From Klebsiella phage N1M2: a DNA stretch of 64,000 nucleotides. Numbering within the stretch: position 1 is the first letter of the stretch; every line of letters begins with the position of its first letter. The stretch lies in sequence record MN642089.1, one strand, 5' to 3'. The position numbers were made by a program, and so were the translations under genes. Below the pieces are notes generated by a model that saw nothing but the letters and a program-made list of their open reading frames with translations, made no database searches and had not been told where the DNA came from. Below are positions 10,099 to 64,000 of the stretch, in pieces.

Positions 10099-10113
10099 AA
10101 CTAAATAACTACT

Positions 10114-10135
10114 GGGGCGATCTTTTGATCGCTCC
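10114..10135 (+). terminator. hairpin terminator
   Basis: 'ggggcgatc'-tttt-'gatcgctcc'. Confidence 0.45.
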
Positions 10136-10158
10136 AATAGTTTATTATCGAGGTTGAA

Positions 10159-13100: not shown

Positions 13101-13923
13101 GAACGTTATCTCTTATAATGAACACCAAACTAATACTGATGGATCATGGGCTGGTTTGGAATATCGTTATGGTCTTAACATCTGTTATCCACATGTCGAA
13201 ATTCTTGACTTCCCAGAGGAAGGACCTAGAAATATGGAGATATGCTGGTTTACAGGAATACAGATTAAGACAACAGGTAACGCCACCACTCAACGTACAT
13301 TCTTAAGGGTGCGTAATAACCAAACCATCGAGGCTACTTCAGCCACTGGTAATGGTCAGTCCTTTAACGAATACTACTGGCAAGTCCAGGCCAACCCACA
13401 GTGGGGATGGTTGCAAGGTGTTCCTGCTGCTGAGTCTGGTGGTGCGATGGACTTGATGGTTCCATGGAAAGGTCCTGAGGGAAGTCTCCAAGCAGACCAA
13501 GACAAGTACGTTATGCTTGGCGCTACTTACGTTGAGGGTAACTGGTCTGTATTTATCAATGCCGATATTAATGTAACCTTTAATGGATACTCGATGCCGG
13601 CTAAGATGACCAACTGGGATTTGAGAGATCTTACCGATGTCTATCGTGATTCAACATTTTACCTTTACTGTGTCTCTGATGGTTCTGCTGCTCGGTATGA
13701 TATATCCAAGGTTTTAAGACACCATAACCCATCAGCTATTCTGGTTGGTGTCATTACGACAGATTCCTTTGGTATTGTTACCATTCAGCGTTATCAAAGT
13801 TTCACCATTAGTGGTTATCCTTTAACCCGTCAGCGTGATACAGGTGTGCCAGTATCTTCTGGAGCTATCACGGAACAAGGTACATATAAGTTCCTGAAAC
13901 GTAGCGAGTTGTATACAGGTTAA
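10159..13923 (+). CDS. tail fibre protein (1254 aa)
   Basis: Paralogous N-terminus 'VDWETQINNKP...HSHD', 'IPPPITGSFEGLGG'; followed by hairpin terminator. Confidence 0.65.
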   Translation: MKDLDIVDIDYSAKKAEFKKEDKVDLAKISPPWIVPEEGPMYGDNTLRVIRGGLDLVRGKDWVPVTDVPKLSELTGKPVYLYIELKDHVLATGGEVSVVYQRVGKPVISVKTLLDMLQQMVIEGKPVDWETQINNKPDTYYPAWHSHDIQNPNELVGFGGLVELFSMFTYRAKADGGKVRELLEKLQKEVWDKLNYTQKLLWGVIMDHSRNYQNPHKLKPADIDLGNVGNFATATPQQDADAMRDDLYSTPAGLKRLTEELAPDTEDFIVQSELPFGYFGSGIYIPPPITGSFEGLGGDYENSAFCQEGNGWTVGLLRAFDGRVKNLYYIYKTDVRNRDEKLVPWLHTYVQYQHPTITADGLEPNYVINGSNNDIIMLGVSDNPTEQLKADEKFYISLSNSTFDPNSHEFKETNFAELRGPEDLVPAAGYTTIAHVGSWVYLIVSYNTKEGFTQPDGVGVTNYQQWFYRAKYSDINNKDVDKVVFQQVDVTYDNVSRVRKSGKAMAMIDYQANAAGEITRGLVNYIPSVTTAESHRRRQFIIVNNPNNPALSRVRILAISYATKTTQNSAYAGWANLIVDYEWNGETNTWTLSPHWEFGTWSVETGSIISPTKSWLEWCNGNNESRYHSQSFAINAGSYIPGFGFVSIGSRQTGTPPLMAISTIYNRDGDPQRDYEYMGLPPNWTTDSGLYNGWWNQMVLRSPFGVSGFPRFYADLYRLDGKIRQTPIEIFMAETEDQDTASFYRITEGGEGDNYDKRDSLQSKYIQMPIYGRKTNSNFGKVSGTHYDVATVNRPKKKDVKSRETGVFGYLRRGIIKNPGAPYMFSRKTYDDGSIKEIVQENDGSIIVNLNLNFTMEPLSKVIYAKPIAQEKLRIPKAIWEGVIKTALETHYSKTIDMGVSFYVCQDPGTNADQPYCMFSIIYHITDNPRLTRSIIGRFNWDVESVGADGIRVMKMGAIDYPFSGSNYAKQRLVPPSQNPENVISYNEHQTNTDGSWAGLEYRYGLNICYPHVEILDFPEEGPRNMEICWFTGIQIKTTGNATTQRTFLRVRNNQTIEATSATGNGQSFNEYYWQVQANPQWGWLQGVPAAESGGAMDLMVPWKGPEGSLQADQDKYVMLGATYVEGNWSVFINADINVTFNGYSMPAKMTNWDLRDLTDVYRDSTFYLYCVSDGSAARYDISKVLRHHNPSAILVGVITTDSFGIVTIQRYQSFTISGYPLTRQRDTGVPVSSGAITEQGTYKFLKRSELYTG

Positions 13924-13929
13924 TAGAAT

Positions 13930-13945
13930 GGGGAGGAAACTCCCC
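13930..13945 (+). terminator. hairpin terminator
   Basis: 'ggggag'-gaaa-'ctcccc' + tttcttattt. Confidence 0.6.
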
Positions 13946-13966
13946 TTTCTTATTTAGGAGATTTTC

Positions 13967-47412: not shown

Positions 47413-47422
47413 ATGAATAATA

Positions 47423-47450
47423 GCTACTCTACCCAAACGGGTAGAGTAGC
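47423..47450 (+). terminator. hairpin terminator
   Basis: 'gctactctaccc'-aaac-'gggtagagtagc' + tttatttttttat. Confidence 0.7.
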
Positions 47451-47472
47451 TAGTTCATATTACTTTATTTTT

Positions 47473-47661
47473 TTATGACTTTATTTTGAAAACAACTGAA
47501 CCCTTATAGATAGTTCCATCTGGGTGTTCAACATAAGTATATTGAACAGAAGGACTTTCTATATTGTTGGTTGTCAAATCTGGTCTAGAGACACCTTCAT
47601 AGAAAGCTTTGAATGGTATCTGTCCAGTTTGACCTTGTAGAATATCTATCTTCTTGGCCAT
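47473..47661 (-). CDS. small hypothetical protein (62 aa)
   Basis: Sits between two terminators in convergent zone; AAGG upstream of ATG. Confidence 0.3.
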   Translation of the reverse strand: MAKKIDILQGQTGQIPFKAFYEGVSRPDLTTNNIESPSVQYTYVEHPDGTIYKGSVVFKIKS

Positions 47662-47713
47662 TACAATATTACCTTATTATAGTTAGGACATAGAATCCTT
47701 TAAACAAAATAAA

Positions 47714-47743
47714 GAGTATCTACCCCTGGTGGGGTAGATACTC
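47714..47743 (-). terminator. hairpin terminator for minus-strand structural operon
   Basis: 'gagtatctacccc'-tggt-'ggggtagatactc'; T-run on minus strand side. Confidence 0.65.
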
Positions 47744-47754
47744 AATGATGAAGT

Positions 47755-49923
47755 TTATAAAATTTCTACTTTAAATCGGTCAGTAGGGATACCTTTACTA
47801 TTAGCTTTTGTTTCTAAATCAACAGAAGCTTTAAGTGCGAAATCTGTTTCATTGTATTTAACATTGAAAGTCAATTCTGCTGTATCTGTGATGACATCTT
47901 TTTCATCAGCAGTCACAGATTTGAATGCCCACTTACCGTCTTCAGTTTGAATAAATTCAAAGTCAGCTTTGATAGCTTCAGCATTATCACAAACTACAGA
48001 AGTTACATTAGCAGTAACATCTTCACCACCTACCTTTATTGTATAAACTAAAGGCGCAACGTCCCAAAGTTCCATTGTGTATTTGGTTGTTAGATCGGTG
48101 ATTCTTGGTTTGGTTGGTGCAGTAACATCAAGCTCTGCGGAGACACCTGTCCAAGACATAGGGAACCCATTATAATCTTCAGTGAGTTCAAACTCTATGC
48201 TGGCTTTGGAGTTCTCTTTATTGGATCTCACCTTACCTTTAAATACCAGACCTGTTTCATCTGTGGCAACAAAGTTATCAATAATGGTAACATCTGTCGG
48301 AGTAGCAGAAGTAATATCAACTTTAATAGCTGATGGTTCTGTTGCACCCAAAGTACGTAATTGAAGGAATCTCAATTCAACATCAGTTTGATCGTAAGGT
48401 TCTAACTTATTAGGAGTTAGTTGTGCAGTAACTGGTGTACCTGGATTACTATACGACTTAACTGGTATTTCAAATAAAGGCTCATCTTTATCTGGATAAC
48501 CCAGAACCATTGTGATATTAAATACACCTTTATTGTAAGAGGTCGTGACAACAACACCATAGTCACCAGGCTCAGCGCCAGGTTGAATATTGTTGCTATA
48601 TCCATTTATGACAGCATTTGGAGCTTTAACCTTAAGGCTCTTGAATACTAATCCAGATACTGGTTGACCAGCGGCATCTTTAACACTGAATGAAATCTCA
48701 TTCCGACCCATTGGGTTGATATCGGAATCCTGAGTTTTCCATTCCACACTGGCTGTTGGTTCAGACATGGAAATGACTTTCTGAACAAACTCCCCAACTT
48801 GTGTTTGATATTTGATATCAACTTGTTGAGTGAGTTCTACATCAGCACCAGTTTTATTTTCTTTAGTGATTTCCCAGGTAATTTCAGTGGCTGTTTTGCC
48901 AACCAACTTAATGATAGACTCGTCAGCAACAGTTACTTCCAAATCTTCATTAGATACTGCAACCCCATCATACTCTACGGACAGTTTAACTGAATGAGTA
49001 GAACCTTGCAGACCTTTTATTTCCTGTGGGATTTCTTTAATGGCAAGACCGCCAATATAAACCGAACCAGGTAAAGTGGTGGTTACTATGTTAACATTCT
49101 CAACAACACCTTCAGTGTCATCACCGATAACTATAGTAACGTCACCAGTGCCAGCCTGAGGCTTACTGTTAAGAACAATAGTTAGTGCATCCACATTGTT
49201 TACGATGCTGTCACCAAATGTGAATGGACCACCATTAGAGGACTCAGAACGCAATTTAAGAGCTTTAGCTGGTTCAGGTAGACCTTTGTACCAAACATTA
49301 AATACGGTGGTGGTAGTGCCTCCTATAGGGGCTTTACACTCGGTAGCTGTGGTTGTTGCTTTAAGAGCTACACCGTCATAAGGTTCGGCGTTAATGGTCC
49401 CTTCAAAAGTTTTAACCGTTTGGTCAGGATCATATTCAGCAGGTAACTTATAAGTCCAGTTTGCTTTGAAAGCTTTGGCTTCAGCAAAGCTAGCATCAGA
49501 CACGATATACCACTTGGTATTATCCCAAGGTCCCAATTGAATATTGGCAGTAGGAGTTAGTTTAACATCTACCAACTGACTAGTGATATCCTGACCATTG
49601 GCCATTACTTTAAATGGCAATGTCGTTCCACTATCCCATACCTTAGAACTAATAGGTGTGTCAACAGTCTCTAGTACCAATTTAGCTTTCTGCTTTAATG
49701 ATAGAGGGACTGTTAACTTGTACTTGTCTTTATATATGAATGTGAGGTTTGGTGTGTGAGTGGTATCCTGGGCAACTTCGCCCAGGAATTTATAGGTAAT
49801 AGAATCAGCGGTCTTACTCTCGATTTCAACTTTAGAAGTATCGTCGAGAGTAATAACCATTTCTGGATCTAAGTTACTCAACACCTCCCCATCAACAGCC
49901 ATTGCGTTTCTAACTGTTGCCAT
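47755..49923 (-). CDS. Ig-like-repeat virion protein (722 aa)
   Basis: Thr/Val/Gly/Lys-rich beta-sandwich-type repeats, optimised codons, terminator at 47714-47743. Confidence 0.6.
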   Translation of the reverse strand: MATVRNAMAVDGEVLSNLDPEMVITLDDTSKVEIESKTADSITYKFLGEVAQDTTHTPNLTFIYKDKYKLTVPLSLKQKAKLVLETVDTPISSKVWDSGTTLPFKVMANGQDITSQLVDVKLTPTANIQLGPWDNTKWYIVSDASFAEAKAFKANWTYKLPAEYDPDQTVKTFEGTINAEPYDGVALKATTTATECKAPIGGTTTTVFNVWYKGLPEPAKALKLRSESSNGGPFTFGDSIVNNVDALTIVLNSKPQAGTGDVTIVIGDDTEGVVENVNIVTTTLPGSVYIGGLAIKEIPQEIKGLQGSTHSVKLSVEYDGVAVSNEDLEVTVADESIIKLVGKTATEITWEITKENKTGADVELTQQVDIKYQTQVGEFVQKVISMSEPTASVEWKTQDSDINPMGRNEISFSVKDAAGQPVSGLVFKSLKVKAPNAVINGYSNNIQPGAEPGDYGVVVTTSYNKGVFNITMVLGYPDKDEPLFEIPVKSYSNPGTPVTAQLTPNKLEPYDQTDVELRFLQLRTLGATEPSAIKVDITSATPTDVTIIDNFVATDETGLVFKGKVRSNKENSKASIEFELTEDYNGFPMSWTGVSAELDVTAPTKPRITDLTTKYTMELWDVAPLVYTIKVGGEDVTANVTSVVCDNAEAIKADFEFIQTEDGKWAFKSVTADEKDVITDTAELTFNVKYNETDFALKASVDLETKANSKGIPTDRFKVEIL

Positions 49924-49937
49924 GGGTATTTCTATCC

Positions 49938-52900
49938 TTATTTAGTTGGGTTCTTAACTGCTTGAGTTAGTACGATAGTATCGGTACCTTCACCACTAGT
50001 TTGGAATCCATCGACCATTTCTAATTTTTCATAGAAAGGTACGTGTTGGAAACTAAAGCTAGTATTCGCAGTTTGTTTGACATTCTTAGGATCAACATAA
50101 GTGATTGTCAAACCAACATTGTTTCCAATGTAAGTAACATCGGTATCTTCGGTGAATCTCAGTTTCAAACCATTTTTGGTGATTGAACCAGGAACTATTT
50201 CAATACGCGGATCCGTAGGTTTAGAAATAGTCACTTTAGGATCATTCAATGCAACCTGCTTATCATTATAATAAGCAATTATTTCCATTGGCATTTCGTC
50301 ACCAAGCTTACCGGTAACGCGCCCAGGAACTGTATCTGAAACAATGAATGGTTTATTGGAATCAACCAAGGTCAGTCTGAATCTTGCAGGACCACCATTG
50401 ACGTTAGTAATGATCTCGTTATTAGGAGTGCCTTTCAGTTTGAGGTTAACAATGACTTCTGTATAAGCGACACCAACTTTAGCAAAATCAAATCGCATTG
50501 TGCTTCTGCCTGATGCATTATCATAAGTCATAGCACCACTAGGAGTGCAGTAACCACTACCAACTGGCATACTAACGAAATCTAAAGCCCCTACTGGAAC
50601 GCCTCTCAGCTTACCTGAGAATTGCATACTGGAGAACCCGCCAGAATACATGATCCATTCGCCGCTCTCACCTCTGTAGTTAGGAGGGACTTCTGCGGTC
50701 AATACCAGTTCTTTACCATCATACTCATTAATGGTAAATGGAACTTCAACATTAACTTCTGGCGTATCTGCGGCGTACTTATAAGTATAAGAAACATTTT
50801 GTTTAGTTGTAGGGATAGCCTTATCAGAGATAATCTGATAACCGCCCTTAAGACCATTATGTTTAACCAAACTGGTCTCAACAAAACTAATTGCATTTAC
50901 ACTAGAGGTAACGTCTTTATCACCCAACATGAATTTAAGTGGTGGGTTGGCGGTACTGAACCAAACATCAACTTTAGGTTCCAATACTGTTACAACTAAG
51001 GCACCGGTTAAAGTAACATTAATAGTAGTTTCTGTTTTGAGACCTTTGGAACTGACTTGGACCTTAACAGGAACTACCTGGTCATAAGGAACTTCCTTAT
51101 CAATTTGAACGACCATTGTATCTGCAGTTACTGAAACCTTACTAATGGTATCAGCTGGATCGAAGGACCATGCTACAGAACTATCATCAAACTTAAAGTT
51201 AGTTTCACCATTGGTTAGGGAACCAGTTAAGGTAATCCGATCGCCCTTCTTACCAGAGATATCAGTAGGTGTCAAATCAAGTTTGAAATTACTCGAATCT
51301 ATAACACCATAGATAGGTTCCAATGGTACCTGGTTTTCAGTTGTTCCATCAGATAAGAAGAAGGTGACAAAGCCCTTACCTTCATGCCCACCACCGACCA
51401 CCACCACACTATAAACCCCATCACCGATCTCTTTGAAGTCCTTAGCAGACGCGGGGGCACCACCTGTTGCAATTCCGCCTTTAGATACCACAACACCAGT
51501 AACTGGCTTACCGGTTAGGGTAACTTTGAACTTCATCTCAGTTTCAGCACCTTCAACACCATTGAATTCGGTATCGATTGGTTCAGCAATCAATGTGGCT
51601 TTAGGTATTGCCAATCCATCTGCTATTACTGGTATTCCAGTAACTCCCTTAGCTGTTATCCCACCTCTAACATAGACATTTCCACTTACAGTGGTTGCGG
51701 TGAATTTAATTATTAGATATTTATTGTCGTTGGGATCCACGGAAACAGAGAACTCTTTGGTCGTATCGATACAGTTCTCAGGAACTGGGACCAGTTTACC
51801 AGTGAGTAGTTTCATATCCTCTAACAGCGTTCCGTTATTAGATACTCTACATCTGATAGTATTTTCTATACCTGGTTTAACTTCACCAGGTTGGTATAGT
51901 GTTAGCAAAGGAGCTTCGGTGGAGGTTGTTGGGTTTACCCAGAAATTATTTCTAGTTACACATTTATATTGATCATTCACCCCACCTTCTTTATACAACA
52001 TCGCCCATGGTGAGTAGTACTGATGGTTGGTATCAGTGATATTCAATCTTGGTTTAGTGATTCTGACATATAAGGTGGTATCATCTCCACCTATGTAACT
52101 AAAGGCATTTGCTTTAATGGAAGGGCTACTGATATTATTACCATTATCAAGGAAATAAACTGATAAGTTATAGTCATTTAAAGATATTCTTTCACCATTA
52201 ATATAGACATAAACTTCAGCTGTCCCGGAGCTTCCAACAAATGCACCCAATGCCCCATAAGGTCCACCGACTTTTTCTATGGTTCCATAAAGAGCTAAAT
52301 AGTCTCCATTGGAGAATAGCTTGGCATTTAGATGAACTACATCTATATTTTCATTAGCCCCTGGAGAATCCTTAAGTTTATACCCTATCCCATTAACAGT
52401 AGTAATAGGGTTATATACATCTTTAGACCCGTTAACTACAGTTGCCTTGATAGTAATCGTAAGCTCGGTATTATCTTCGGATGGTGTTAACTTAGTTACT
52501 ATAAATCCTGGATTAGTGGGAAGGATAACTTCTATCCTATCTGCAATTGGTTCTTTCTTATATTTAGGTTTAATTACATAAGTGGTTTCTTTTAGAGGGC
52601 TAGCCCCAATGATTCCATCTGTTTCAATTTCTAGGGCTTTACCACTCCAAGCCGCTATTCGATAAGTACCATAGGCTACTTTAGGTTTCCAGTTGCCACC
52701 AACATTAACTTCAAAAGTAAAGAATGTGGATTTACTAGCTCCCGCATTTGGAGCTGTGTCCACAGTCCATTTAGTTGGGTCTTCTGGGTCGACAATGATA
52801 TATTCATTGGGGATCAGTTTAACATTTCTAATCTCACTGGTTACATCTGTCCCGGCCAGAACGACACTAAATGGTACAGCGTCCAGTTGATCCCAGACTT

Positions 52901-54557
52901 TAACATCAATAGTCTTAGGTGTGATTACAACAAGATCATTACCACTAATAAGTAGCTTCTTGTTATATTTGTAAACACGATTCTCAGGAGCAGGTCCCGT
53001 GATATCCGCAGTTACAAGTATCTCACCATTATTACCATTGGTGATGGCATTGATGACAAAACTACCATCGAGATTTTTAGATGGAGCAGAGGCACTAGTT
53101 AATGGTCCAGTTGCTTTAAAGTTAGAAATAGTGTTGCCGGAGAACTTGTTTTCACCTTGTTCCTTGATACCGATGATGACATAGTTATCACCTTTATTAT
53201 TCAACTTCTCAAATGGCATTGCATAAGAATCATAACTACCTTCTGGAACAGGAATAGAGAGTTCTTGGCAAGCGACCGGAGTGACGCCATAGATAGGACC
53301 GTTGTAGTACCTTGGACAACCCAGCACGCCACTGGCTATAACCAATTTTTGTTCAACACCAGTGGTAGTTATTTCCTGGATATATCTATTTAGTTGATCT
53401 GGGGTTAACCCAGTTATATCAATTGTGGTTATTGTAGTGTTATTAGAAGCCACACGTAATGAGGCAAATCCAGAAATAAATTTAGCACCTTCAGTGATCC
53501 AATAAGACCAATTCACCCCAGCTGCAATGGAAGCTGTAAACATGGCCTTTTGTAGAGAATTGGGAACTAGATCTTTGATCGATGTTAACAGAATGGCTTT
53601 GGGTTCCTGACCAACATCCAATAATGCAACCCCACCATAATCGTAAGTCTGACCAGCTCTACCAAATCTCCATGTGAATCCCAATGATTCGTCAGATGCA
53701 ACTGGACTATCATTAGTTATTACATATCCAATGTACTCTGGTGTAACTTCCGTAATTGAAAATTTAGATGCACCCTTTTGCTTTTTAACTGCTATGTTGA
53801 CTGGACTTATTGTTATACCTTGAGTGTTGAGTGGCGTTATAACCCCACTTAAAGTGATAATGGGATATAATCTACCTTTAGCGTCTTTAGGTCCTTTCGG
53901 GTTACTATCAAACCCGGTTGGGAAAGTCACAAAGAACCCACTCTTAAAAGTCATAAGAATATTAATAGCCGCCCAACCATCACCTTCTTTGGTACTGTCA
54001 TCAGCTTCATTTCTCAATATTCTTATTCTGACAGTTTCACCCAGAGCTTCTGCAGTTGGAGTATAGTAGACTCTGACTGTTAAATTATCAGGGAGTTTCT
54101 CTTGTTTATTAAACTCGGCCTTGCCGTTGAACTCATTAGATCCTGACAGGAACTGAAATTTTGTATTACTTAAAGGCTGACCTTGATATTTGGCTTGAAT
54201 ATCAAAGTAGCTTTGCTGGTTGGGAACACCAGTAATAATTCTACCATTATTGGTAATGATTGTTGCTTCTAACGTACCTTTTGGATACGCCTTTATATTG
54301 ACCTTACTCTCTGCTTCCAGGGAGTAGGTCTGTCCTAAGTCTTCGACGTCAAACTTGAATACTGCGTCGACCAAGGTATCTTTATCTTGGTCGGCATTAA
54401 TTACTGTGAAAGTATCGTTATCATTAGCTTTGAAGAAGGGGACCGGAGTCCCCCCTTTTACATCAACTTCTTTTAACTTGATATTCTCAGTAATGTCAGT
54501 ACCAGTTTGGACGCTTCTAACCCTGAATGGAACTACAGCTGACTGTTTGTTATCCAC
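49938..54557 (-). CDS. Ig-like-repeat virion protein (1539 aa), GTG start
   Basis: Repeated ~90-100-aa Ig/BIG-like units; AAGGA RBS upstream of GTG. Confidence 0.6.
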   Translation of the reverse strand: MDNKQSAVVPFRVRSVQTGTDITENIKLKEVDVKGGTPVPFFKANDNDTFTVINADQDKDTLVDAVFKFDVEDLGQTYSLEAESKVNIKAYPKGTLEATIITNNGRIITGVPNQQSYFDIQAKYQGQPLSNTKFQFLSGSNEFNGKAEFNKQEKLPDNLTVRVYYTPTAEALGETVRIRILRNEADDSTKEGDGWAAINILMTFKSGFFVTFPTGFDSNPKGPKDAKGRLYPIITLSGVITPLNTQGITISPVNIAVKKQKGASKFSITEVTPEYIGYVITNDSPVASDESLGFTWRFGRAGQTYDYGGVALLDVGQEPKAILLTSIKDLVPNSLQKAMFTASIAAGVNWSYWITEGAKFISGFASLRVASNNTTITTIDITGLTPDQLNRYIQEITTTGVEQKLVIASGVLGCPRYYNGPIYGVTPVACQELSIPVPEGSYDSYAMPFEKLNNKGDNYVIIGIKEQGENKFSGNTISNFKATGPLTSASAPSKNLDGSFVINAITNGNNGEILVTADITGPAPENRVYKYNKKLLISGNDLVVITPKTIDVKVWDQLDAVPFSVVLAGTDVTSEIRNVKLIPNEYIIVDPEDPTKWTVDTAPNAGASKSTFFTFEVNVGGNWKPKVAYGTYRIAAWSGKALEIETDGIIGASPLKETTYVIKPKYKKEPIADRIEVILPTNPGFIVTKLTPSEDNTELTITIKATVVNGSKDVYNPITTVNGIGYKLKDSPGANENIDVVHLNAKLFSNGDYLALYGTIEKVGGPYGALGAFVGSSGTAEVYVYINGERISLNDYNLSVYFLDNGNNISSPSIKANAFSYIGGDDTTLYVRITKPRLNITDTNHQYYSPWAMLYKEGGVNDQYKCVTRNNFWVNPTTSTEAPLLTLYQPGEVKPGIENTIRCRVSNNGTLLEDMKLLTGKLVPVPENCIDTTKEFSVSVDPNDNKYLIIKFTATTVSGNVYVRGGITAKGVTGIPVIADGLAIPKATLIAEPIDTEFNGVEGAETEMKFKVTLTGKPVTGVVVSKGGIATGGAPASAKDFKEIGDGVYSVVVVGGGHEGKGFVTFFLSDGTTENQVPLEPIYGVIDSSNFKLDLTPTDISGKKGDRITLTGSLTNGETNFKFDDSSVAWSFDPADTISKVSVTADTMVVQIDKEVPYDQVVPVKVQVSSKGLKTETTINVTLTGALVVTVLEPKVDVWFSTANPPLKFMLGDKDVTSSVNAISFVETSLVKHNGLKGGYQIISDKAIPTTKQNVSYTYKYAADTPEVNVEVPFTINEYDGKELVLTAEVPPNYRGESGEWIMYSGGFSSMQFSGKLRGVPVGALDFVSMPVGSGYCTPSGAMTYDNASGRSTMRFDFAKVGVAYTEVIVNLKLKGTPNNEIITNVNGGPARFRLTLVDSNKPFIVSDTVPGRVTGKLGDEMPMEIIAYYNDKQVALNDPKVTISKPTDPRIEIVPGSITKNGLKLRFTEDTDVTYIGNNVGLTITYVDPKNVKQTANTSFSFQHVPFYEKLEMVDGFQTSGEGTDTIVLTQAVKNPTK

Positions 54558-54578
54558 GGTTATTGGTCCTTATCAGTA

Positions 54579-57500
54579 TTAACGAGGAGAAATGACTTTG
54601 AATGGTGCAGCGTAAGACTTGCTGTATTCAACGTCTATCTGTGTGATATCGGTCACATATGGCGTAGTCGGAGAAGCTGACTGCGTTAACGTGATGTCTA
54701 CAATATATTCACTTCTTCCTTTATAAGTGAACTTCAACTTGAACTTATGAATAACTTCTTCAGTAGAGTCGTTAGTGAATTTGTATCCGATAGTCTTATC
54801 ACTGAGAGTCCCGATGGTAACTGCTGGGTAATCAACGATTTGAATAATCAAATTCTCATCGGTGTTAGCCAATGCGGTCGAACCAAGGAGCACACTCTGA
54901 ATAAGAGTAGGTAACTCATAGTAGTTACCAGTTCCAGTAGTTTGGAAACCACTAGCCGGAGTGAGTTCCGTAGGTAGGATTTCAACCTTAGGTCTCAGGT
55001 CAATATAGTCAGAACCAATGTTACCGTTACCAGTATCATGGACAGACTTCAATCTGATCTTCAGGTCTCCATTACCAACATTCCCACCTGTTACTTTAAT
55101 TACTAAAGTCCCATCGCTACCTGGGCTCATGTTACCAAAGGTAATCAATCCAGCAGGAATAGAAATACTGCTTGACTTATCGAAAGTAACATTACCAACT
55201 AAAGGCTCGCCAGAGTAATCGCCTTTGATAGTGATGAATCCTTGTTCACCTGTCATCAGGATTACGTCATCAGCCGTTGCATTAATCTCTTTTCCGTTAT
55301 AACCATAAACAGTGAAAGTAACTTCTTGTTTGATGGTAAATGTAACGTTGTCCAGAGTAATATCAACTTCGAAGGTAGGCATTACTTTAGTAGTCTGAAC
55401 ATCAGCGTGACTAATTACCCATCCTTTATCTTTGATGCTCACGTATGAGTTATCAGAGATTCTCACGGCAGAAATCTGATCAGTTACATCATTACCTTTC
55501 CAATCCAATTTGAATGGCAGAGGTCCGCTCTCATTAATATGAGCAGTGATTTCTGATGTCAGATTAGTTACAGTTGGTTTAGGAACCGTAGATACCTGAG
55601 TAACTTTGAATGGTATTTTCAACTGACGGTCTGGCGGAATGTTAGTATCTTTATTCCAAGCCGCTACCACATCTGAGGTAAGTTCCCCAACATCAATGTC
55701 ATTAGCGAACTTAAACTGGAAGTATCCACCTGCGATGTAAGTTGTCGTCACAACGTTAGGTGTAAATACTGCCCTGTTAAAGTCTGTGGATAGGATACGA
55801 GCTTCATCAATGCCTTTCCTGTACTTGACATCCATTCTCATCACAGGCCCGCCAAACTGACCAGTAAACTCTTCTGGGTCGGCAGAGATCAGATAATAGC
55901 CATCGACATAGTACGTTTGAACTGGAACTTTCACATAAGTGAAATCCACGCCTTCCACTGCATCAGGGAGATACATTCTGGATTTAAGACCAACACAGAG
56001 GTAACCTTCTTGAGGTTCCTTCATATCAGTCGCTAGCGCTTGCCAGTTAAAGTAAATGTTTTTGGAGTTATTATCAGGACCTTGGTTATAGATGTTTTCA
56101 GCAAACCCTGGGAGCTTAGAACGAGCGGAGTCTATTTCAAATAGGCTATAATCGCTAATAGCTACTTTACGATATTCGCCTGAAACAGTACCGCGGAATA
56201 TAGCATTCGTTTGACCCATTATCCCGTTATTAAACTGGCTAGGGTTATTAAACTTAAAGCTCAGGGCTTGACCATCATACCCTTCGATGTTGAATACAAC
56301 ATCCTGTTCAATTTCCCAAACACGAGGACCCTGAACGACCGTAACAATAAATGTACCAGTCTTGGTAGTTGCTTCAGGTTCACCATCAATAACAGTATAG
56401 CCATCAGTGAGTTTAGGACCCATCTCCAACCAATCTTTATCTTTATCAGCTGCTTTGATATTAGTAACTGAAGAAGTATCGGCCGGATAATCCACACCAT
56501 CAATAGCTAGTTTAAATGGCAGACCTGTGTTCTTTTTCCAAACGCTCGTGTTAACTTCTTGAACATCTGTAACTGTAAGAACTGGATCTGTCGCACCTTC
56601 TTTAGCTTTGAAGATGATAGGTTGATCGTAACTAAAGGTATACTCTTTATTGTTGTTAGGGTTTTTGAATCTGATATTAAAAGTGAAGTAACTTGTAACA
56701 TCAGTAGCGCCAGGTTTAACAGCAGCTGGACTAATTTTGTAAGACTTAGCGGTCCAGTTGAATCGATTAGTCCCCTGAACATTAGATGCCCCAAAGAGTG
56801 TTGCGATACCTAGGTCGTGTGTTAGACCAACCGAGATAACTTCATTGGTTAGGTTGAGATTAACAGCAAGAGCACCCCAAACTAAATCGCACGGGACATC
56901 GACCACTGTCGTACTTCCGGCAGGGACAATGATAGGCTCAGGTACGAATCCTTCCCTGAAGGTAATTTTATCTTCGAACATATTCCAGATAACTGGCATG
57001 TTATCGAAGTTTTTACCAGGAGTGCCGGCAGGGTAACCGTTAGGTCCATTAGCCTCAGTACCATTATACTGTAATGGGACTTTACCTTTGTATTTACCCA
57101 ACTTGTCAGGTATCACCCTAACACTCACCTCATTGGCATTACTACCACCGCCAGAAGTCCAATGTATGGCTGTTGGATCTTCCGACTCAATACGGTTGAT
57201 TGTTGAATATCCAGACCGGTTTGTTCCAATAGGGTATGTTTTATTTTTCAACATTGCCCTAAAGAAGAAAGTGTAGAAGTTATTAGTGAAAGGTATGTTG
57301 ATAACGAAGCCATCACCTTCTTCCGTAATAACTGGTGCACTAACACCATTCTTGTTTACCGGTTCGCCCCAGAACTCAATCCCATCCCAAGCTGAGATAT
57401 TAACAGTTATCTTACCAGTAAGAACAACATTACCAGTAGATGCAGGAGTCGAGTATGTGAATTCTACTTCTACCGTCTTAGGTGTTGGGTCCGCATTTAT

Positions 57501-60500
57501 ACACTGTACAGTTGCACTTGGACCAGCTTCAAAGTAATTTGAACTGATCGCAGTGATACTACATTGTGTAGTAATATCGGTTTCACCACTAAAGACTTTG
57601 AATGGAGTGAATTTACCCCAAATATCGACATCCACAGGGTCGGTATTAGGTTCTAATCTCGGACCTTGGAAAGCCTTAAGTTGAACCTTACCACGTTGGT
57701 GCAGGTCATTGGTTCCATCATAACCCACGACATCCCAGACAAAGTTAAATACAGCAAAGAACGAATTAAGCCCTTTGTATTTAACCACCAGTTCATCTCC
57801 ATCAGGTTCGACAGAAAGAACTTCGAAGAAGGCGCTATTCTGAGTTTGTTCTTGATTCAATGTCAGAGCCGTAGTAGGTAAACCGCGGTTAGTCATTTTG
57901 AATCTCAACTCACCTTCTTTATCTTTGGTAAGTTCAAATGGATTCGGCGCGCCGGTACCTTGGATCCATCCAGCATGAGTAGGTCTAGAAGCTACTAGTG
58001 TTGTTAATTCTACATCAGGTATCTGTATCGTGGACCCTCTAAATGGAACCTCAATAACCCATGAAGTTCTAACATTATGGTTTCCGGTATTCCCGATGTA
58101 GTTATCAATACACCACATCCAGTCCTTGTTAGGATTTTCATCATCAGGAATGATGAGAATGCCTTGGGCGTCAGCATCCAATGTTTCCATACTCACTGGA
58201 GTACATTGAGTAGTTAGATCGGTACCGCCAACCATCACTTTAAAGATCTGAGGACCTCTAACCCTGTTGAATGGTTCAACACTAACTCTGATTGGTGTGA
58301 TTACCGGATAATCCGCAGGGACGACAATCTCAAATGGCTGAGTGTATTCACCAGTATGGGTTGTTCCAGTATTTGGGTCTGTATAACTCAAGGAAACTTT
58401 AATTTCCCGTTTACCCAATTCAGCATCGATAGGTGCGATGACCTCATACTGATACTGAGTTTGGTTAGATCCAGTGATCTTAATAATATCATCAGGATCA
58501 AGAGTTATTTTCAAGTCAGGGTTATCAAGTAGTATATTACGACCTCTGAGAGTGACTCTTAAAGGCATGTTACCTTTATCACCATTCCCGCCCTTAAGAC
58601 CAGCATTCCAACCAGTTACCAATAATGGAGGTTGTTTGAAATCCGCACCAATAACCAGACTACACCAATCCAGGAACTCAACACCAGGTTTAGCTCCACC
58701 AGGTCTTCTCAAGATGAGTTTGATATCACCTTTAAATTCCTTAGTAGGAGTTACACTATATCTGGCTCGCGCCTCAGACCCACCACCGATTGGACCAGTG
58801 AACTCAATATCCATCGCGTCACGGAAATCAGTTTCCAAATAGTCAATTATGTCAGTGTTGTTAAAGTTAGGGATTAACTTGTAAACAGTCTGCATATCAA
58901 CAGTTGTTACATCTCCCACTTCCATTACTAGAGGGTAGGTGTTATCAGGATAATGTTCAGGTGGATTTCTGTGCATCCAGAAGGACTCTAAAGTTCTCTG
59001 GTTCCAGGCTGCAATGTTGAACACCACATCAGCTTCACCTTTCCATGTCCAGTTACGGTAGATACCGTTATAGATCATTTTCAGTGTGAGTGACTTATTG
59101 GTCTCATCTGCTTTCACTACCGTAAAGCTACGGAGAGAAACAGTGATGTATCCATTAGGTTGTTCTTCATCTAATTCACAGTTCATCCAACCACTTTCAG
59201 CAGGAGCTGGAAGACTAGATGCTGTCAGTGAGACATCTCCACAAGTCGCCGATCCGATACCGAGGGATTGGGTATCAAACATCTTACATGCAACTGGAGA
59301 ACGAGGAACAACTACTACTGGTGCGGAAGTATACAGTTCAGGTATTTCTACTCTTCTGCTGTAATTATTTCCACCATAAGTATATGTGATGTTAATGAAG
59401 TCAGAAACTGTGATTTCACGTCCTGGGGCCACAACGCCTGCAAGAGAGTAATTGAATGATTCAGATTCCCAACTACCGATGCTGAGAACACCAGCGTTAG
59501 GAGAAGCACCTTCACCTTTCTCTACAGTTACCCGCAGACTACCATTAGCCATTTCCTGTTTAGCATCGATAGGAATCCCACCAAACAGAATCTGGAGTTT
59601 GTACTCTCCAGTGTCTCCGTCCTTACCAGTCAGCAGGTTATCACGATCACCGATCTCAACACCCAACTCACCCATAACTTTAGTCGGAACTTTACCAGTC
59701 CAAACGTCATAAGGAGCTGGATCTGTACCAGCAGCAGGAGACCAGAACACCAGGTCCATTTCCCCAAGCCCGGCTTCAACACCTTCAAAGGTCAATACGA
59801 AATCAACTCCATCCATCGAGCTACTAACGTATTTAACAGATTTAGGGAAAGTACTCAATTCAGGTTTGAATGTCGCACTTGCACCTACTTCCTTATCTTT
59901 GTAAATTGGGCGAACCTTCAGGGTATTTTGTTCACCAACAGCTGTTTCCAATTTATTAGGCGTGACGGTACATTTGAATCTAGTTGTATCCTGAGCACCT
60001 TGGATTCGGAATGTCGCATCAAACTCAAGTGACTGAACTTCTGGAACTTCATCTACCTTATACAGAACCTGCATCTTGATAGTCTTATCGCTCTGAACTT
60101 TCTCAGCGCCGATAATTTCCCAGCCACGTGGTGCGATGAACTCGACCCATTGGTTGTCCGGTTCGTTGGTCTTATAACCCTGAACAGTATTTAAAGGGTT
60201 ATCGCCCATTTTAATACCTTGAGTAAATGACCCACGATCCCAAATCTTACCGTTGATTGGATCGTTGTTCGTGATCTCTACTTTACCCATCTGGATACTA
60301 ACCTGGGTAGAAATCGTTCCTTCTTTAGGCGCAGGAGCACCAACTTCATAGGTGACTTTAATATCTTCAGGATAAACAGTCAAGGCTTCACTGACGTTAG
60401 AACGAATGGCCTGAATAACAACACCATTGCTAACTCCACCCACGATACGAATCGAGTGTGCTTTGCCATTATCTACCAGTTCATATTTCAGCCCTGGTGT

Positions 60501-63500
60501 ATTACCAGGAATTCCATATTCCCCATATTTAAGGGCCAGTACGATGGTTGCTGTTTCCATCCAAGGAATCGTAATCGCTGGGGTTTTGGATTCAACAGTA
60601 AAGACTTCATCAGAAGACTGAGTGATAACTTTAACTACGGCAACTGCATAGTCATCATTGACAACTGGCGGATTGGTAGCATTCTCTCTCACGAATACTA
60701 ATCTGAGAGTGTCTTCTGCTTGACCCAACAATGTGTAAGGTACATCACCATCTGGAGTGATCTCACCCAGTACGATGTTTTTAGGTATAGTACTCTTACC
60801 TAAATCAATACTTACATTCTTGGCAACATCACCGGCATACTTAAAGCGGAACTTCATTGTTCCAGGTGTACCAGCTTTACCTTCAACTTCTTCTGGACCT
60901 TCAGTGATAACGAATTTCTTACCGTCATATTTGGCGATATTGAAATCGGTTTCAGTATCCATCTGGTAGGTATTCCCACCCATGGAGTATTGAGCAGAAA
61001 GTCTCAGAGTGGTAGTAATGGAAGTAGATTGGCTACCGCCAGTAACGTACCATTTATTTGGTTCAGTGAAAGTGATATACGGGTTAGTTCCACGAGGAGT
61101 CAGACTTTCGATTGGAACAGGTCGACCTTGATCATCAACCAAAGTAATTCCAACGACGCCGCGATCCCATACGTTAACGTTAAATGAAGGGTTAGCTCCA
61201 ATTCTAACATCAGGAATATGGATGACTACCGGTACGGTATTTTCATTGGTCCAGGTTTTTCCATTAGGGTCAACGTACTCGACATTGATTTTGAAATCAT
61301 AGTCGTAGTCTTCGCCTTTCTCCCCACCTTTAGCAAGTTTAACAGTCAAGGACTCGTCATTGATCTTAACAAGTTCTACTGGCTCGCCATCACCTGAAGT
61401 GGCAGTGAGTTTTAACTTAGGATCATTCAGGGTTAATGGAATACCATCCCAGTTATAGACTAACTCGATAGTTGCTTCGGCATTCCAGATGCCTTTAACA
61501 GAAGGAGTGATCTTAACTAGGTTCAGTTCATGGGGCCATGCAATCTCAGTCGGAATATCAGCCTGGATCGTTCTACCACTTGGTGTGTGGCGATAGATCA
61601 GGGTCATTAAGTAATCACCACCACGAGTGGTTTCGTACCCAATAACTACACCTTCACCATCCACGTTAGAACTTACACCCATGATGAAAGTTTCTGGGAT
61701 AGTGGAAGCAGCTTTATCCACAACTACATCAGCGTTAGCCGGTTTACCTTTATAAACAAAGTTACCCGTTATTGTACCATTAGTTCTGGAATCTGCTTTG
61801 ATAGACTTAGGTTCCCAATCACCGCCGAAAGTGATCTGGTCCCAAGGCTCCAAATTAAAGACAACTTCAGTAATGAACTTGCGATCTTTAGCTTTGCCTA
61901 CGGTCCATTTAATTTCTAACGGAATCGTAATGGTGGTTGCTTCTTTCTCAGCCCAAATCACTTCCCAGTTAAGTTTATTGAAAGCAATATACTCATTATC
62001 CTGGATAGATTTGACGCTAGTAATCGCACCAGTCCAGTTGGTATTACCAGCCATGAGAGTGAAAGGCAATAGTCCAGTATCCCAAATAGCTGCATCGATA
62101 GGTGCGGCTGGGGTACCTTCTAAACGCATTTCTGGATATACAGTGAAGACAGGTAAAGTGAACTTAACGTTAGTTTGTTTACCGTCTCTTGGGTCTGTAT
62201 AGATGTACTCTAATTCCAAACCAGATTGACGAGTCTCACCGATGTATTCCCAAACGTTGTCAACAACCTCGACACCATTGTCTTTAACGTCAACGATACG
62301 GACGTTAGATTTGTCAGTACGCTTATACGTTAAGTTAGGATCGGTCAGTGGAACGACTTTACCAGCAAAGGTCAGAGTGATCTTAGCTAATGCTGAAGAA
62401 CCACCTACTTCAACTGTGGTTTCTTTATCGTAATCCTTAAGTACCAGTACACGAGACTGTTTAACGTCAGTGCTAACGTGAACAAGTGCGATATCTTCAG
62501 GTTTAGGATCTTCGATACCAGGGCGTTGAATATAAACTTTACCAGGCTCAGTAGTAGGTTGAAGTTTACTGTAGTTGGCACGAATAACATTTCGTTCTTC
62601 TATATAAACGAAAGAGTTGAAAGTAATCCCTGCTGGGGTTACTAACTTATCTTTCATTATTTCTGCTGTGGCGGTAATGTCTTCTGACAAGTGGTATACT
62701 TGGAATTCAAAGTAACCTGTTTCATCAGACAGACCGTCGATCAGTGCAGAAGAAGGAACGGCTACAGTTTTGGTGTTAATCCCAGGTTCTGTTGTACCAG
62801 GATCTTGTTCCCAAGCATTAACATTGAAAGTTTGATCGTAAGTAAACTGACGCCAAACACCATCAATAGTGTAACGGAACTTAAATGGAACTGTGGTGCT
62901 TTCTGCCGGAGCAGGAACATCTGGAGCATTACCAACGAACCATTGATCCGCATTACCTTTCTTAGGAATGATGAAACCTTTCTCATCTTCAAAAGTATAA
63001 TCACTAATTTTCTTAGTGACATCAACGCCGTTCACAATCAGTTTAAATGGATAGTCACCAAACTGATACTTATTAACCACGAGAGGGTTAGAGAGAACAG
63101 GAACCAGTTCAACTGTGGAGACCTGCGCTACAATTACACGGACCTTACGAGTGATGACGTATCTTACACCAGTTGGCGCAATCCAACGGAATACTTGATC
63201 ATAGTCATCTTCAATTTCTTCGCCGGGTTTGTTGGCGTCTTTGATGATGGTGTAATTAACACCTAACTGATCAACTGAATTATATTCGATCAGTTCTTTC
63301 TCACCTTTCTTACCTGTGCGGATATCAAGATCGGTAGGAGAAATAGGTTCATCATTATAAAAAGCACCAACAGTCAAAAGACCTTTATCGCCTTTATGAC
63401 CACGGATAACAGCTGGGAAACTACGAATCTCAAACTTAGGACCGGTATCTGGACGAGTAAGAACTACGTTCACATACGCCGGAGCTTTAGAAGTAATATC

Positions 63501-64000
63501 ACCTTCGTTATATACAAACTCAGCGGTATAGAGCCCACCGACTTGTTCAACGGTGTTCGGGAAGTTAGTGCTTAAATGACCTTCATAGATCATCGCGTCA
63601 TTTTCATCCCAGGTAGTAAACTTCATTGCACCGAAGTTACCTTGCTGGAGTAACGCAGATGGAGGAGCACTAATTCTTACCTTATTGCCTTTATAGAAAG
63701 CAGTGATCTTAACCTGTACATCTGAACCTGATGGCGCGGTAACGGTTTCTGGATCAATTACGAAAGTAAGATCGAAACTGTTATCCTTTTCGATAACCAC
63801 ATTGATTCTGAACGTTTTCTTAACAGGTCGACCTTGCCACATATAAGTGACACGCACGATGATCTCATCACGGACTTCTTTTTCAGAAGAACCATAAATG
63901 GTTTCACCAATGATGAAGTTTCCGTCTTCAGAACGTTTAGGAATGGTGTAACCAGAACCAGTACTGATTTCGATCAAAGCTTCATGTGTGATGTCAATAG
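54579..64000 (-). CDS. giant Ig-like-repeat protein (>3140 aa), 5' end beyond window
   Basis: Frame stays open to window edge; dozens of Ig/FN3-like units. Confidence 0.6.
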   Translation of the reverse strand, partial: IDITHEALIEISTGSGYTIPKRSEDGNFIIGETIYGSSEKEVRDEIIVRVTYMWQGRPVKKTFRINVVIEKDNSFDLTFVIDPETVTAPSGSDVQVKITAFYKGNKVRISAPPSALLQQGNFGAMKFTTWDENDAMIYEGHLSTNFPNTVEQVGGLYTAEFVYNEGDITSKAPAYVNVVLTRPDTGPKFEIRSFPAVIRGHKGDKGLLTVGAFYNDEPISPTDLDIRTGKKGEKELIEYNSVDQLGVNYTIIKDANKPGEEIEDDYDQVFRWIAPTGVRYVITRKVRVIVAQVSTVELVPVLSNPLVVNKYQFGDYPFKLIVNGVDVTKKISDYTFEDEKGFIIPKKGNADQWFVGNAPDVPAPAESTTVPFKFRYTIDGVWRQFTYDQTFNVNAWEQDPGTTEPGINTKTVAVPSSALIDGLSDETGYFEFQVYHLSEDITATAEIMKDKLVTPAGITFNSFVYIEERNVIRANYSKLQPTTEPGKVYIQRPGIEDPKPEDIALVHVSTDVKQSRVLVLKDYDKETTVEVGGSSALAKITLTFAGKVVPLTDPNLTYKRTDKSNVRIVDVKDNGVEVVDNVWEYIGETRQSGLELEYIYTDPRDGKQTNVKFTLPVFTVYPEMRLEGTPAAPIDAAIWDTGLLPFTLMAGNTNWTGAITSVKSIQDNEYIAFNKLNWEVIWAEKEATTITIPLEIKWTVGKAKDRKFITEVVFNLEPWDQITFGGDWEPKSIKADSRTNGTITGNFVYKGKPANADVVVDKAASTIPETFIMGVSSNVDGEGVVIGYETTRGGDYLMTLIYRHTPSGRTIQADIPTEIAWPHELNLVKITPSVKGIWNAEATIELVYNWDGIPLTLNDPKLKLTATSGDGEPVELVKINDESLTVKLAKGGEKGEDYDYDFKINVEYVDPNGKTWTNENTVPVVIHIPDVRIGANPSFNVNVWDRGVVGITLVDDQGRPVPIESLTPRGTNPYITFTEPNKWYVTGGSQSTSITTTLRLSAQYSMGGNTYQMDTETDFNIAKYDGKKFVITEGPEEVEGKAGTPGTMKFRFKYAGDVAKNVSIDLGKSTIPKNIVLGEITPDGDVPYTLLGQAEDTLRLVFVRENATNPPVVNDDYAVAVVKVITQSSDEVFTVESKTPAITIPWMETATIVLALKYGEYGIPGNTPGLKYELVDNGKAHSIRIVGGVSNGVVIQAIRSNVSEALTVYPEDIKVTYEVGAPAPKEGTISTQVSIQMGKVEITNNDPINGKIWDRGSFTQGIKMGDNPLNTVQGYKTNEPDNQWVEFIAPRGWEIIGAEKVQSDKTIKMQVLYKVDEVPEVQSLEFDATFRIQGAQDTTRFKCTVTPNKLETAVGEQNTLKVRPIYKDKEVGASATFKPELSTFPKSVKYVSSSMDGVDFVLTFEGVEAGLGEMDLVFWSPAAGTDPAPYDVWTGKVPTKVMGELGVEIGDRDNLLTGKDGDTGEYKLQILFGGIPIDAKQEMANGSLRVTVEKGEGASPNAGVLSIGSWESESFNYSLAGVVAPGREITVSDFINITYTYGGNNYSRRVEIPELYTSAPVVVVPRSPVACKMFDTQSLGIGSATCGDVSLTASSLPAPAESGWMNCELDEEQPNGYITVSLRSFTVVKADETNKSLTLKMIYNGIYRNWTWKGEADVVFNIAAWNQRTLESFWMHRNPPEHYPDNTYPLVMEVGDVTTVDMQTVYKLIPNFNNTDIIDYLETDFRDAMDIEFTGPIGGGSEARARYSVTPTKEFKGDIKLILRRPGGAKPGVEFLDWCSLVIGADFKQPPLLVTGWNAGLKGGNGDKGNMPLRVTLRGRNILLDNPDLKITLDPDDIIKITGSNQTQYQYEVIAPIDAELGKREIKVSLSYTDPNTGTTHTGEYTQPFEIVVPADYPVITPIRVSVEPFNRVRGPQIFKVMVGGTDLTTQCTPVSMETLDADAQGILIIPDDENPNKDWMWCIDNYIGNTGNHNVRTSWVIEVPFRGSTIQIPDVELTTLVASRPTHAGWIQGTGAPNPFELTKDKEGELRFKMTNRGLPTTALTLNQEQTQNSAFFEVLSVEPDGDELVVKYKGLNSFFAVFNFVWDVVGYDGTNDLHQRGKVQLKAFQGPRLEPNTDPVDVDIWGKFTPFKVFSGETDITTQCSITAISSNYFEAGPSATVQCINADPTPKTVEVEFTYSTPASTGNVVLTGKITVNISAWDGIEFWGEPVNKNGVSAPVITEEGDGFVINIPFTNNFYTFFFRAMLKNKTYPIGTNRSGYSTINRIESEDPTAIHWTSGGGSNANEVSVRVIPDKLGKYKGKVPLQYNGTEANGPNGYPAGTPGKNFDNMPVIWNMFEDKITFREGFVPEPIIVPAGSTTVVDVPCDLVWGALAVNLNLTNEVISVGLTHDLGIATLFGASNVQGTNRFNWTAKSYKISPAAVKPGATDVTSYFTFNIRFKNPNNNKEYTFSYDQPIIFKAKEGATDPVLTVTDVQEVNTSVWKKNTGLPFKLAIDGVDYPADTSSVTNIKAADKDKDWLEMGPKLTDGYTVIDGEPEATTKTGTFIVTVVQGPRVWEIEQDVVFNIEGYDGQALSFKFNNPSQFNNGIMGQTNAIFRGTVSGEYRKVAISDYSLFEIDSARSKLPGFAENIYNQGPDNNSKNIYFNWQALATDMKEPQEGYLCVGLKSRMYLPDAVEGVDFTYVKVPVQTYYVDGYYLISADPEEFTGQFGGPVMRMDVKYRKGIDEARILSTDFNRAVFTPNVVTTTYIAGGYFQFKFANDIDVGELTSDVVAAWNKDTNIPPDRQLKIPFKVTQVSTVPKPTVTNLTSEITAHINESGPLPFKLDWKGNDVTDQISAVRISDNSYVSIKDKGWVISHADVQTTKVMPTFEVDITLDNVTFTIKQEVTFTVYGYNGKEINATADDVILMTGEQGFITIKGDYSGEPLVGNVTFDKSSSISIPAGLITFGNMSPGSDGTLVIKVTGGNVGNGDLKIRLKSVHDTGNGNIGSDYIDLRPKVEILPTELTPASGFQTTGTGNYYELPTLIQSVLLGSTALANTDENLIIQIVDYPAVTIGTLSDKTIGYKFTNDSTEEVIHKFKLKFTYKGRSEYIVDITLTQSASPTTPYVTDITQIDVEYSKSYAAPFKVISPR

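Follow-up and report, generated by a model that had tools for sequence, protein, structure and literature searches.

Three giant genes and their beta-sandwich repeats

We analysed a stretch of 64,000 nucleotides (nt) from Klebsiella phage N1M2 (MN642089.1), referred to here as the window, whose right end is occupied by three consecutive minus-strand genes for very large proteins (genes A, B and C). All coordinates are positions in this window unless another sequence is named. N1M2 is a chimallivirus of the OBP/pEt-SU clade. Within our phage collection the Serratia phages Yubaba and Sureiya had the nearest genomes, with ~80% nucleotide identity where the sequence is conserved; SXP01, OBP, pEt-SU, Survivor and Kc263 came next. 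In the NCBI taxonomy, Petsuvirus (with the records of Yubaba, Sureiya, OBP and pEt-SU) belongs to Chimalliviridae, the nucleus-forming jumbo phages. Less is understood of host recognition than of anything else in these phages, and the tail fibres of Goslar were not resolved even in a recent structure (10.64898/2026.04.21.720040).

Translation confirmed the three minus-strand open reading frames (ORFs) that a preliminary description of the locus had listed. Gene A (47755-49923) starts with ATG and encodes 722 amino acids (aa), gene B (49938-54557) starts with GTG and encodes 1539 aa, and the partial gene C (54579-64000) is free of stop codons over all 3139 codons of the frame that runs from 63998 to the window edge. 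C therefore continues beyond the window. A protein that is 98% identical to it (P0012, 3375 aa, offset 236) showed that the window part corresponds to residues 237-3375 of the full protein, so that 236 N-terminal residues lie outside. A chance origin of this ORF was ruled out by the length of the open frame, 9.4 kb in DNA of 41% G+C, and conserved homologues exist for all three ORFs. The intergenic gaps, given earlier as 14-21 nt, are exactly 14 nt at the B-A junction (49924-49937), where an AAGGA ribosome-binding site overlaps the stop codon of B, and 21 nt at the C-B junction (54558-54578), where AAGGA stands 9 nt before the GTG start; both were read from the sequence.

The GenBank protein N1M2_161 is 100% identical to B but is annotated with 1338 aa, its initial Met being residue 202 of our ORF, 201 codons later (region 53955-54557). 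The GTG-start residue is where orthologues of B (1523-1563 aa) begin, with 68-100% identity over the first 100 aa. On this basis we place the start of B at the GTG at 54557, which gives 1539 aa and makes the annotated start 201 codons too late. The richness of the three proteins in Thr (9.6-11.5%), Val (9.3-10.1%), Gly (6.2-8.9%) and Lys (6.1-8.0%) that had been pointed out is borne out by their composition; they are also rich in Ile, and Cys and His are scarce. Their codon usage had been taken as typical of abundant proteins, but it proved to be average for the window, with a frequency of optimal codons (Fop) of 0.47-0.54 (window range 0.43-0.70), an effective number of codons (Nc) of 45-47 and a CGT share of Arg codons of just 0.09 in B. 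The argument for abundance therefore fails.

Repeats were defined by iterated profile searches inside the protein family. A plain tandem repeat of ~95 aa, in line with the units of ~90-100 aa described previously, was dropped, as the profile searches instead gave a super-repeat of ~310 aa made of three related beta-sandwich domains, D1, D2 and D3, which are distant relatives of one another. In the best-preserved units D1 (~90 aa, motif W-D-x3-LPFK-x3-G-x-DVT) is followed by D2 (~80 aa) and D3 (~87 aa). D1 was found in the giant protein C at aa 306, 634, 939, 1248, 1569, 1803, 2122, 2482 and 2817, a spacing of about 310-330 aa, with three copies in B and two in A. The conserved N-terminal ~100 aa of B form a D1-type domain, and A gave profile matches to both D3 and D1. 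Non-repeat cassettes without a match to the D1, D2 or D3 profiles interrupt the super-repeats, chiefly in central B and the distal third of C. Counted at ~105 aa per domain, C, B and A hold ~30, 15 and 7 domains, ~50 in total; ~29 immunoglobulin (Ig)-like beta-sandwich domains fall in the window part of C, ~14 beta domains in B and ~7 in A. At an assumed 4 nm per domain the extended lengths would be ~120, 60 and 30 nm for C, B and A.

Two regions, 1242 residues in total, were modelled with AlphaFold2: C aa 619-945 (327 aa, alignment of 18 sequences) and B aa 96-1010 (915 aa). The first (61164-62144) covers one complete super-repeat and was predicted as three consecutive beta-sandwiches (model residues ~5-98, 106-202 and 207-309) with a mean predicted local distance difference test (pLDDT) score of 89.1. 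When it was compared with the PDB using Foldseek, it matched the extracellular (EC) arrays of cadherins and protocadherins, the Bacillus surface-layer (S-layer) proteins EA1 and Sap, gp210 of the nuclear pore complex and the Ig-like domains of a GH107 enzyme (probability 1.0, E 3e-9 to 1e-7, ~10% identity). The B model, which spans both variable cassettes, was all-beta throughout at pLDDT 69, with its weak parts in cassette 2, and matched DSCAM, titin, contactin, gp210, S-layer and invasin arrays. After the proteins' own family, the best Foldseek matches among viral models were proteins labelled 'Ig' from uncultured phages and, in the hairy jumbo phages Y3 and JA11, large 'putative major tail proteins'. 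Enzymatic or non-Ig folds throughout, the outcome named beforehand as the one that would speak against an Ig-like array, were not what we found, as no enzymatic or alpha/beta domain was present in the 1242 residues modelled. Tandem ~100-aa two-sheet domains, seen in the models and in their Foldseek matches, place the proteins in the Ig-like/cadherin-like beta-sandwich class, and the models show them as long chains of such domains.

The earlier Ig-like assignment thus holds at the level of the fold and not at that of a named sequence family. A Pfam hmmscan of A, B and C at E<=1 gave no match to Big_1, Big_2, Big_3, I-set, fn3, Cadherin or Invasin_D3; the sole matches at this cutoff, DUF1579 and YtkA, were sub-threshold and at chance level. 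Precomputed Pfam domains were absent from all 41 homologues, and no PHROG match was obtained for the three proteins. There was no PDB sequence match for the three proteins, for two upstream proteins of Yubaba or for a profile of the N-terminal anchor domain described below, which rules out a sequence link to the solved parts of phiKZ. A PHROG scan of the anchor domain found no match either, and nothing usable came from scanning six neighbouring cluster proteins (from Yubaba, OBP and Kc263) and the Survivor homologues against Pfam and PHROG. The UniRef label 'PA14 domain-containing' on a Survivor homologue was not reproduced with Pfam and was not used.

Relatives, operon and conservation

Searching 1.84 billion representative proteins with a profile of the super-repeat returned only 43 proteins at E<=1e-3, all from the phage lineage of N1M2; their length is mostly 1,000-5,300 aa, apart from a few fragments of 300-800 aa. 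A tblastn search detected the family in 31 phage records. OBP-like phages of Serratia, Shewanella, Kosakonia, Erwinia, Pseudomonas, Pantoea and Edwardsiella gave matches over the full length, Aeromonas jumbo phages only over ~600 aa at the start of the window part of C (from residue 237 of the full protein). The relatives are annotated as hypothetical, with the exception of one 'adhesin' and one 'attaching and effacing protein'. C aligned with 27 proteins of 3308-5283 aa at 28-98% identity over 82-100% coverage. It shares with the clade full-length orthology, an N-terminal domain and a position beside the gene for the ribonucleotide reductase (RNR) beta subunit, and this synteny is kept in six phages.

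The best explanation of these observations is that A, B and C make up the distal part of an operon of six genes that is specific to the lineage of OBP/pEt-SU-type chimalliviruses. Its order in close relatives is a 1035-aa, a 938-aa, a 3375-aa, a ~1540-aa and a 722-aa gene, with a small terminal gene last. In L006, a close relative, the HNH-split gene for the RNR small subunit is followed by genes for 1035, 938, 3375, 1523, 722, 155 and at least 360 aa, and the order in Yubaba is 1035/942/3373/1549/1071/491 aa. The cluster of OBP comprises gp209-203 and includes a 4079-aa protein; those of pEt-SU and Kc263 contain proteins of 5119 and 3124 aa and of 3577 and 1249 aa, respectively. OBP-like clusters as a whole consist of two to six genes, the largest protein having 3308-5283 aa. 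Gene boundaries vary among them: the three Yubaba genes after the giant gene (1549 + 1071 + 491 = 3111 aa) compare with a single 3124-aa gene in pEt-SU (gp132), homology being shown for part of this stretch only. In close relatives the RNR small-subunit gene upstream of the operon is split by an HNH/helix-turn-helix homing-endonuclease gene (L006 1636-3778; L003 1-1620).

The clusters in OBP (gp205-208), pEt-SU (gp132/133), Kc263 (gp020/021), Yubaba (00790-00840), Survivor, SXP01 and AH04 are true homologues. They resemble that of N1M2 in gene order beside RNR beta, in the N-terminal anchor domain and in the D1-D2-D3 super-repeats, whereas in N1M2 the third gene is short (722 aa) and the terminal gene is reduced to a remnant of 62 aa. 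The triad had been called exceptional, which is true in a relative sense only: clusters in synteny with it, whose proteins reach 5119 aa, are already deposited (pEt-SU, OBP, Kc263). The proteins of these clusters are hypothetical and uncharacterised. What was already known is the existence of deposited homologues; what the present analysis adds is the three-domain organisation of the super-repeat, the N-terminal anchor domain as a shared module and, described below, the swap of a cassette. The operon takes up 16-25 kb, up to ~9% of the genome, across the whole clade, whose hosts are Klebsiella, Serratia, Edwardsiella, Pantoea, Kosakonia, Shewanella and Pseudomonas, and it is annotated as hypothetical proteins only and lies outside every Pfam and PHROG family.

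Conservation along the proteins is markedly uneven. Across the clade the giant protein has 60-66% identity in its N-terminal 330 aa, against 28-34% overall; this region lies mostly outside the window and was seen in P0012. Its first ~200 aa are not Ig-like, given their helix-like sequence, and have paralogues (33-37%) at the N-terminus of the 1035-aa protein and in a stand-alone protein of 201 aa. The latter consists of the anchor domain only (L001 38093-38698, minus strand; YUBABA_00980 in Yubaba; 37% identity). The identity of C to its orthologues declines toward the C-terminus. The N-terminal two thirds of C have a sliding identity of 50-90%; the distal variable zone (55599-57398, minus strand) largely escapes the D1-D3 profiles and contains hot spots at aa 2201-2300 (57099-57398), with 10-36% sliding identity, and at aa 2601-2800 (55599-56198), with 16-44%. 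B and A have also diverged, the first ~100 aa of B and ~80 aa of A being far better kept than the remainder of each. In A, the N-terminal 79 aa (49687-49923) are 58% identical to Yubaba/Sureiya and 57% to OBP_205, the C-terminal ~120 aa (47758-48117) 40-44%, and the middle 8-36%.

DNA and protein comparison with L006 revealed a swapped cassette of 2.7 kb in B (~aa 193-1089; 51290-53980, minus strand). The two DNAs are 95.7% identical over 64000-53980 and 92.9% over 51290-47551, while only a 0.9-kb piece of 51290-53980 could be aligned, at 67%. At the protein level B is 94-100% identical to its L006 counterpart at both ends and 10-40% in the cassette; one segment of it, aa 651-1000, instead resembles the Sureiya-type allele, with 68-92% identity. 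Judged from sequence, this cassette is the putative specificity-determining part of B. Receptor-binding fibres of phages are classically recognised by a proximal anchor and junction modules that are conserved, together with distal cassettes that recombine. In the present family, too, the N-terminus is conserved and the distal part is variable and recombining, and the conservation pattern of A, B and C appears to follow that of phage fibres.

Proposed adhesin fibres and their alternatives

We consider it somewhat more likely than not that A, B and C form virion-anchored, flexible, multi-protein adhesin fibres with host specificity in swappable cassettes. The giant protein would be fixed to the virion by its highly conserved non-Ig N-terminal ~200-330 aa, the same anchor domain that heads the upstream 1035-aa protein, and its bead chain would project as a thin flexible fibre of roughly 100 nm. 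For the 1539-aa and 722-aa proteins, the link to the assembly would be made by the conserved Ig-like module at the N-terminus of each. Contact with host surface structures would fall to the poorly conserved, recombining cassettes, chiefly those in the middle of B but also those in the distal third of C, and would provide reversible first-contact adhesion and part of the host specificity. A giant fibre or adhesin had already been suggested in the preliminary description, and the suggestion fits the conservation gradient, the cassette swaps and the conserved N-terminal modules. It is further favoured by the all-beta bead-chain models, which resemble tandem Ig-like arrays of adhesion proteins and S-layers and, among viral models, 'Ig' and tail proteins, by the gene boundaries that vary among relatives, by the tight coupling of the genes, with ribosome-binding sites in the 14- and 21-nt gaps and a strong terminator at the end, and by the lack of the published early-promoter motif in the cluster.

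Several observations count against such fibres. We found no proteomic, electron microscopic or genetic evidence in the literature for family members in the virion; in particular, the publications on N1M2, Kc263, SXP01, ZPAH34 and AerS_266 contain no virion proteomics of these genes (the OBP virion proteome was outside this scope). The N1M2 publication is without mass spectrometry, and tail fibres were not visible in it by negative stain (PMC7058600). An Ig chain of 2-3 nm could escape detection by this method. The operon adjoins ribonucleotide reductase genes, away from the baseplate and tail genes; PHROG tail-fibre matches are absent, and the proteins revealed neither a lectin nor an enzyme nor any further recognisable binding domain. 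Codon usage of the giant genes is only average, and cassette 2 of B was modelled at low confidence. The window also contains another set of large tail-type proteins (6379-19864). These are probably conventional chimallivirus baseplate or fibre paralogues, in which case the Ig-like operon would be an additional system.

Chains of Ig-like domains would also suit a Hoc-type decoration of the capsid or tail sheath, present in many copies and serving weak, non-specific adherence to polysaccharide or mucus, or particle stabilisation, with no role in host range. Monomeric bead chains are typical of decoration proteins, the hairy phages Y3 and JA11 contribute their 'putative major tail protein' to the structural neighbours, and fibres were not seen at the N1M2 baseplate. 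We nevertheless regard decoration as unlikely: the cassette swaps and the steep proximal-to-distal gradient are expected of specificity determinants instead, 3375-5283 aa is far above the known sizes of decoration proteins, and the codon usage carries no sign of high copy number. PDB sequence searches showed no similarity to solved capsid proteins. Ig-like domains on phage surfaces (T4 Hoc, tail and decoration proteins) were reportedly described by Fraser et al. in 2006 and Barr et al. in 2013. The N1M2 proteins share with them the beta-sandwich fold, exposed bead chains and a proposed weak adhesion, but differ in having no sequence match to the Big_2, I-set, FN3 or Hoc families, 10-50 times more domains per protein, a multi-gene operon, a dedicated non-Ig N-terminal domain and recombining cassettes.

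Fibre-like conservation, together with a strongly conserved N-terminal anchor common to paralogues, also argues against proteins that are not part of the virion at all but act inside the cell or after release by lysis, as a scaffold, a receptor or defence decoy, in biofilm or matrix binding or in superinfection exclusion. The location of the operon next to nucleotide-metabolism genes instead of structural modules would agree with such a role, as would the lack of proteomic evidence for virion association and of visible fibres in N1M2. We judge it quite improbable, as the proteins have no signal peptide or membrane segment that would hint at a role in the cell envelope, no early promoter is present, and 16-25 kb of coding capacity is kept syntenic in OBP-like relatives. 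Conventional trimeric long tail fibres of the T4 gp34-37 type, with the Ig-like appearance as an artefact of monomer prediction, would account for the serial genes, the conserved N-terminal junction modules and the variable distal parts, and Kc263, which has the same cluster, has visible tail fibres (not assigned to genes). Intertwined trimeric fibres usually model poorly as monomers, however, whereas our monomer gave compact, self-contained beta-sandwiches at pLDDT 89. Coiled-coil, beta-helix and collagen-like segments are also absent, and neither the cluster nor its relatives matched tail-fibre or fibre-chaperone families in Pfam or PHROG, so that we hold trimeric fibres to be very unlikely.

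The best structural matches to the proposed adhesin fibres are giant bacterial adhesins and cadherin arrays (invasin/intimin, RTX/Bap-type, protocadherins), which are likewise long tandem beta-sandwich adhesion rods. OBP_205 gave a sub-threshold Invasin_D3 match, and Kc263 gp021 is annotated as 'attaching and effacing protein'. The likeness stops at ~10% identity. The N1M2 proteins are phage-encoded and without secretion signals; RTX, type I secretion system (T1SS), autotransporter and LysM modules are absent, no Pfam domains for RTX repeats, a T1SS signal or a beta-barrel anchor were found in the three proteins, and their invariant columns lack the Ca2+-binding linker motifs of cadherins. Accessory fibres are also known from Goslar and phiKZ, in the form of a DUF7941 'fibre cloud', gp126 collar filaments and a whisker ring (10.64898/2026.04.21.720040). 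These are clade-specific extra systems proposed to extend the reach for host capture, as we propose for N1M2, but they are polymers of small subunits, whereas the fibres of N1M2 would be single giant polypeptides. Neither the PDB sequence searches nor the Pfam scan, whose profile set may not include DUF7941, gave a match that would relate the two by sequence. Hairy jumbo myoviruses (Erwinia Y3, Dickeya JA11, Atu_ph07) supplied, with the large, Ig-rich models of their 'putative major tail protein', some of the nearest viral neighbours outside the family. Their likeness is one of fold only (E ~1e-9, 12-14% identity) between unrelated lineages, and hairs have been reported for the hairy myoviruses and not for N1M2.

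If the proteins are adhesion fibres, the swapped cassette of B would be a concrete host-range determinant for phages considered for therapy, and the D1-D2-D3 super-repeat would define a new Ig-like domain family. A bolder arrangement, which we consider doubtful, is an OBP-type 'fishing-line' organelle. Here at least three giant monomeric Ig-bead proteins would be joined non-covalently end to end into a chain of ~200 nm (~120 + 60 + 30), held by an N-terminal virion anchor, and kilobase cassette swaps in the middle protein would reprogramme specificity. Such a chain would be longer than the 158-nm tail, and its titin-like capture of the host would be unlike any solved phage fibre.

Downstream end of the cluster and transcription signals

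The end of the cluster is marked by a strong intrinsic terminator on the minus strand (47714-47743), 12 nt past the stop codon of A, with a 13-bp stem containing 7 GC pairs that is followed by TTTATTTTGT. Beyond it, between two terminators, lies a minus-strand ORF of 62 aa (47473-47661), the truncated remnant of the terminal cluster gene, whose N-terminus aligns start to start with OBP_203 (43% over 30 aa) and Yub_491. This gene has 491-507 aa in Yubaba and OBP and is represented by 155 and at least 360 aa in L006. DNA homology to L006 stops at 47551, within the 62-aa ORF, and from this comparison N1M2 seems to have lost most of the terminal gene. A bidirectional terminator hairpin (47421-47452), with a 14-bp stem that scored on both strands, closes the cluster against convergent plus-strand genes.

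Between the first terminator and the 62-aa ORF we found the 12-mer GATTCTATGTCC (47686-47697, minus strand), a suggestive candidate for a late-type promoter element as it contains TATG, the core of phiKZ late promoters (PMC4666361). This is its only exact copy in the window. Exact copies are present in L006 at 7034-7045 and 26961-26972, before the 938-aa and 155-aa genes, so that it occupies three intergenic sites of the operon, each time after a hairpin and ~25-40 nt before a start codon. Every longer intergenic region of the operon has a hairpin and then a TATG-containing motif. As a general promoter the 12-mer was rejected: with mismatches allowed it was no more frequent than expected by chance, and only the exact intergenic copies are notable. 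YTATGTYC-like contexts also precede the ORFs at 4292 (minus strand) and 28513 (plus strand), and a hairpin followed by TATG precedes the plus-strand ORF at 6379.

An early-promoter motif has been published for N1M2 and OBP (PMC7058600). It had only three matches in the window, all on the plus strand (24156, 33062 and 42637). Those at 24156 and 33062 lie 45-50 nt before the start codons of the ORFs at 24226 and 33132; the match at 42637 is ~390 nt upstream of the next listed ORF, at 43048. No match was found in 47.7-64 kb, nor in L006 in the 10 kb upstream of the operon. Taken together, these sequence signals hint weakly at non-early transcription of the operon.

The second triad of large proteins (6379-19864, plus strand) encodes 1239, 1254 and 1965 aa with a common N-terminal module that matches PHROG families named 'virion structural protein' and 'minor tail protein', and the 1965-aa protein contains nine DUF285 repeats (PF03382, E 7e-201). 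The strongest codon bias of the window (Fop 0.70, Nc 35.7) was found in the gene at 721-1653 (plus strand) for a DUF7208 protein (PF23838, E 6e-107), which is more plausible as an abundant protein than the products of the giant genes.

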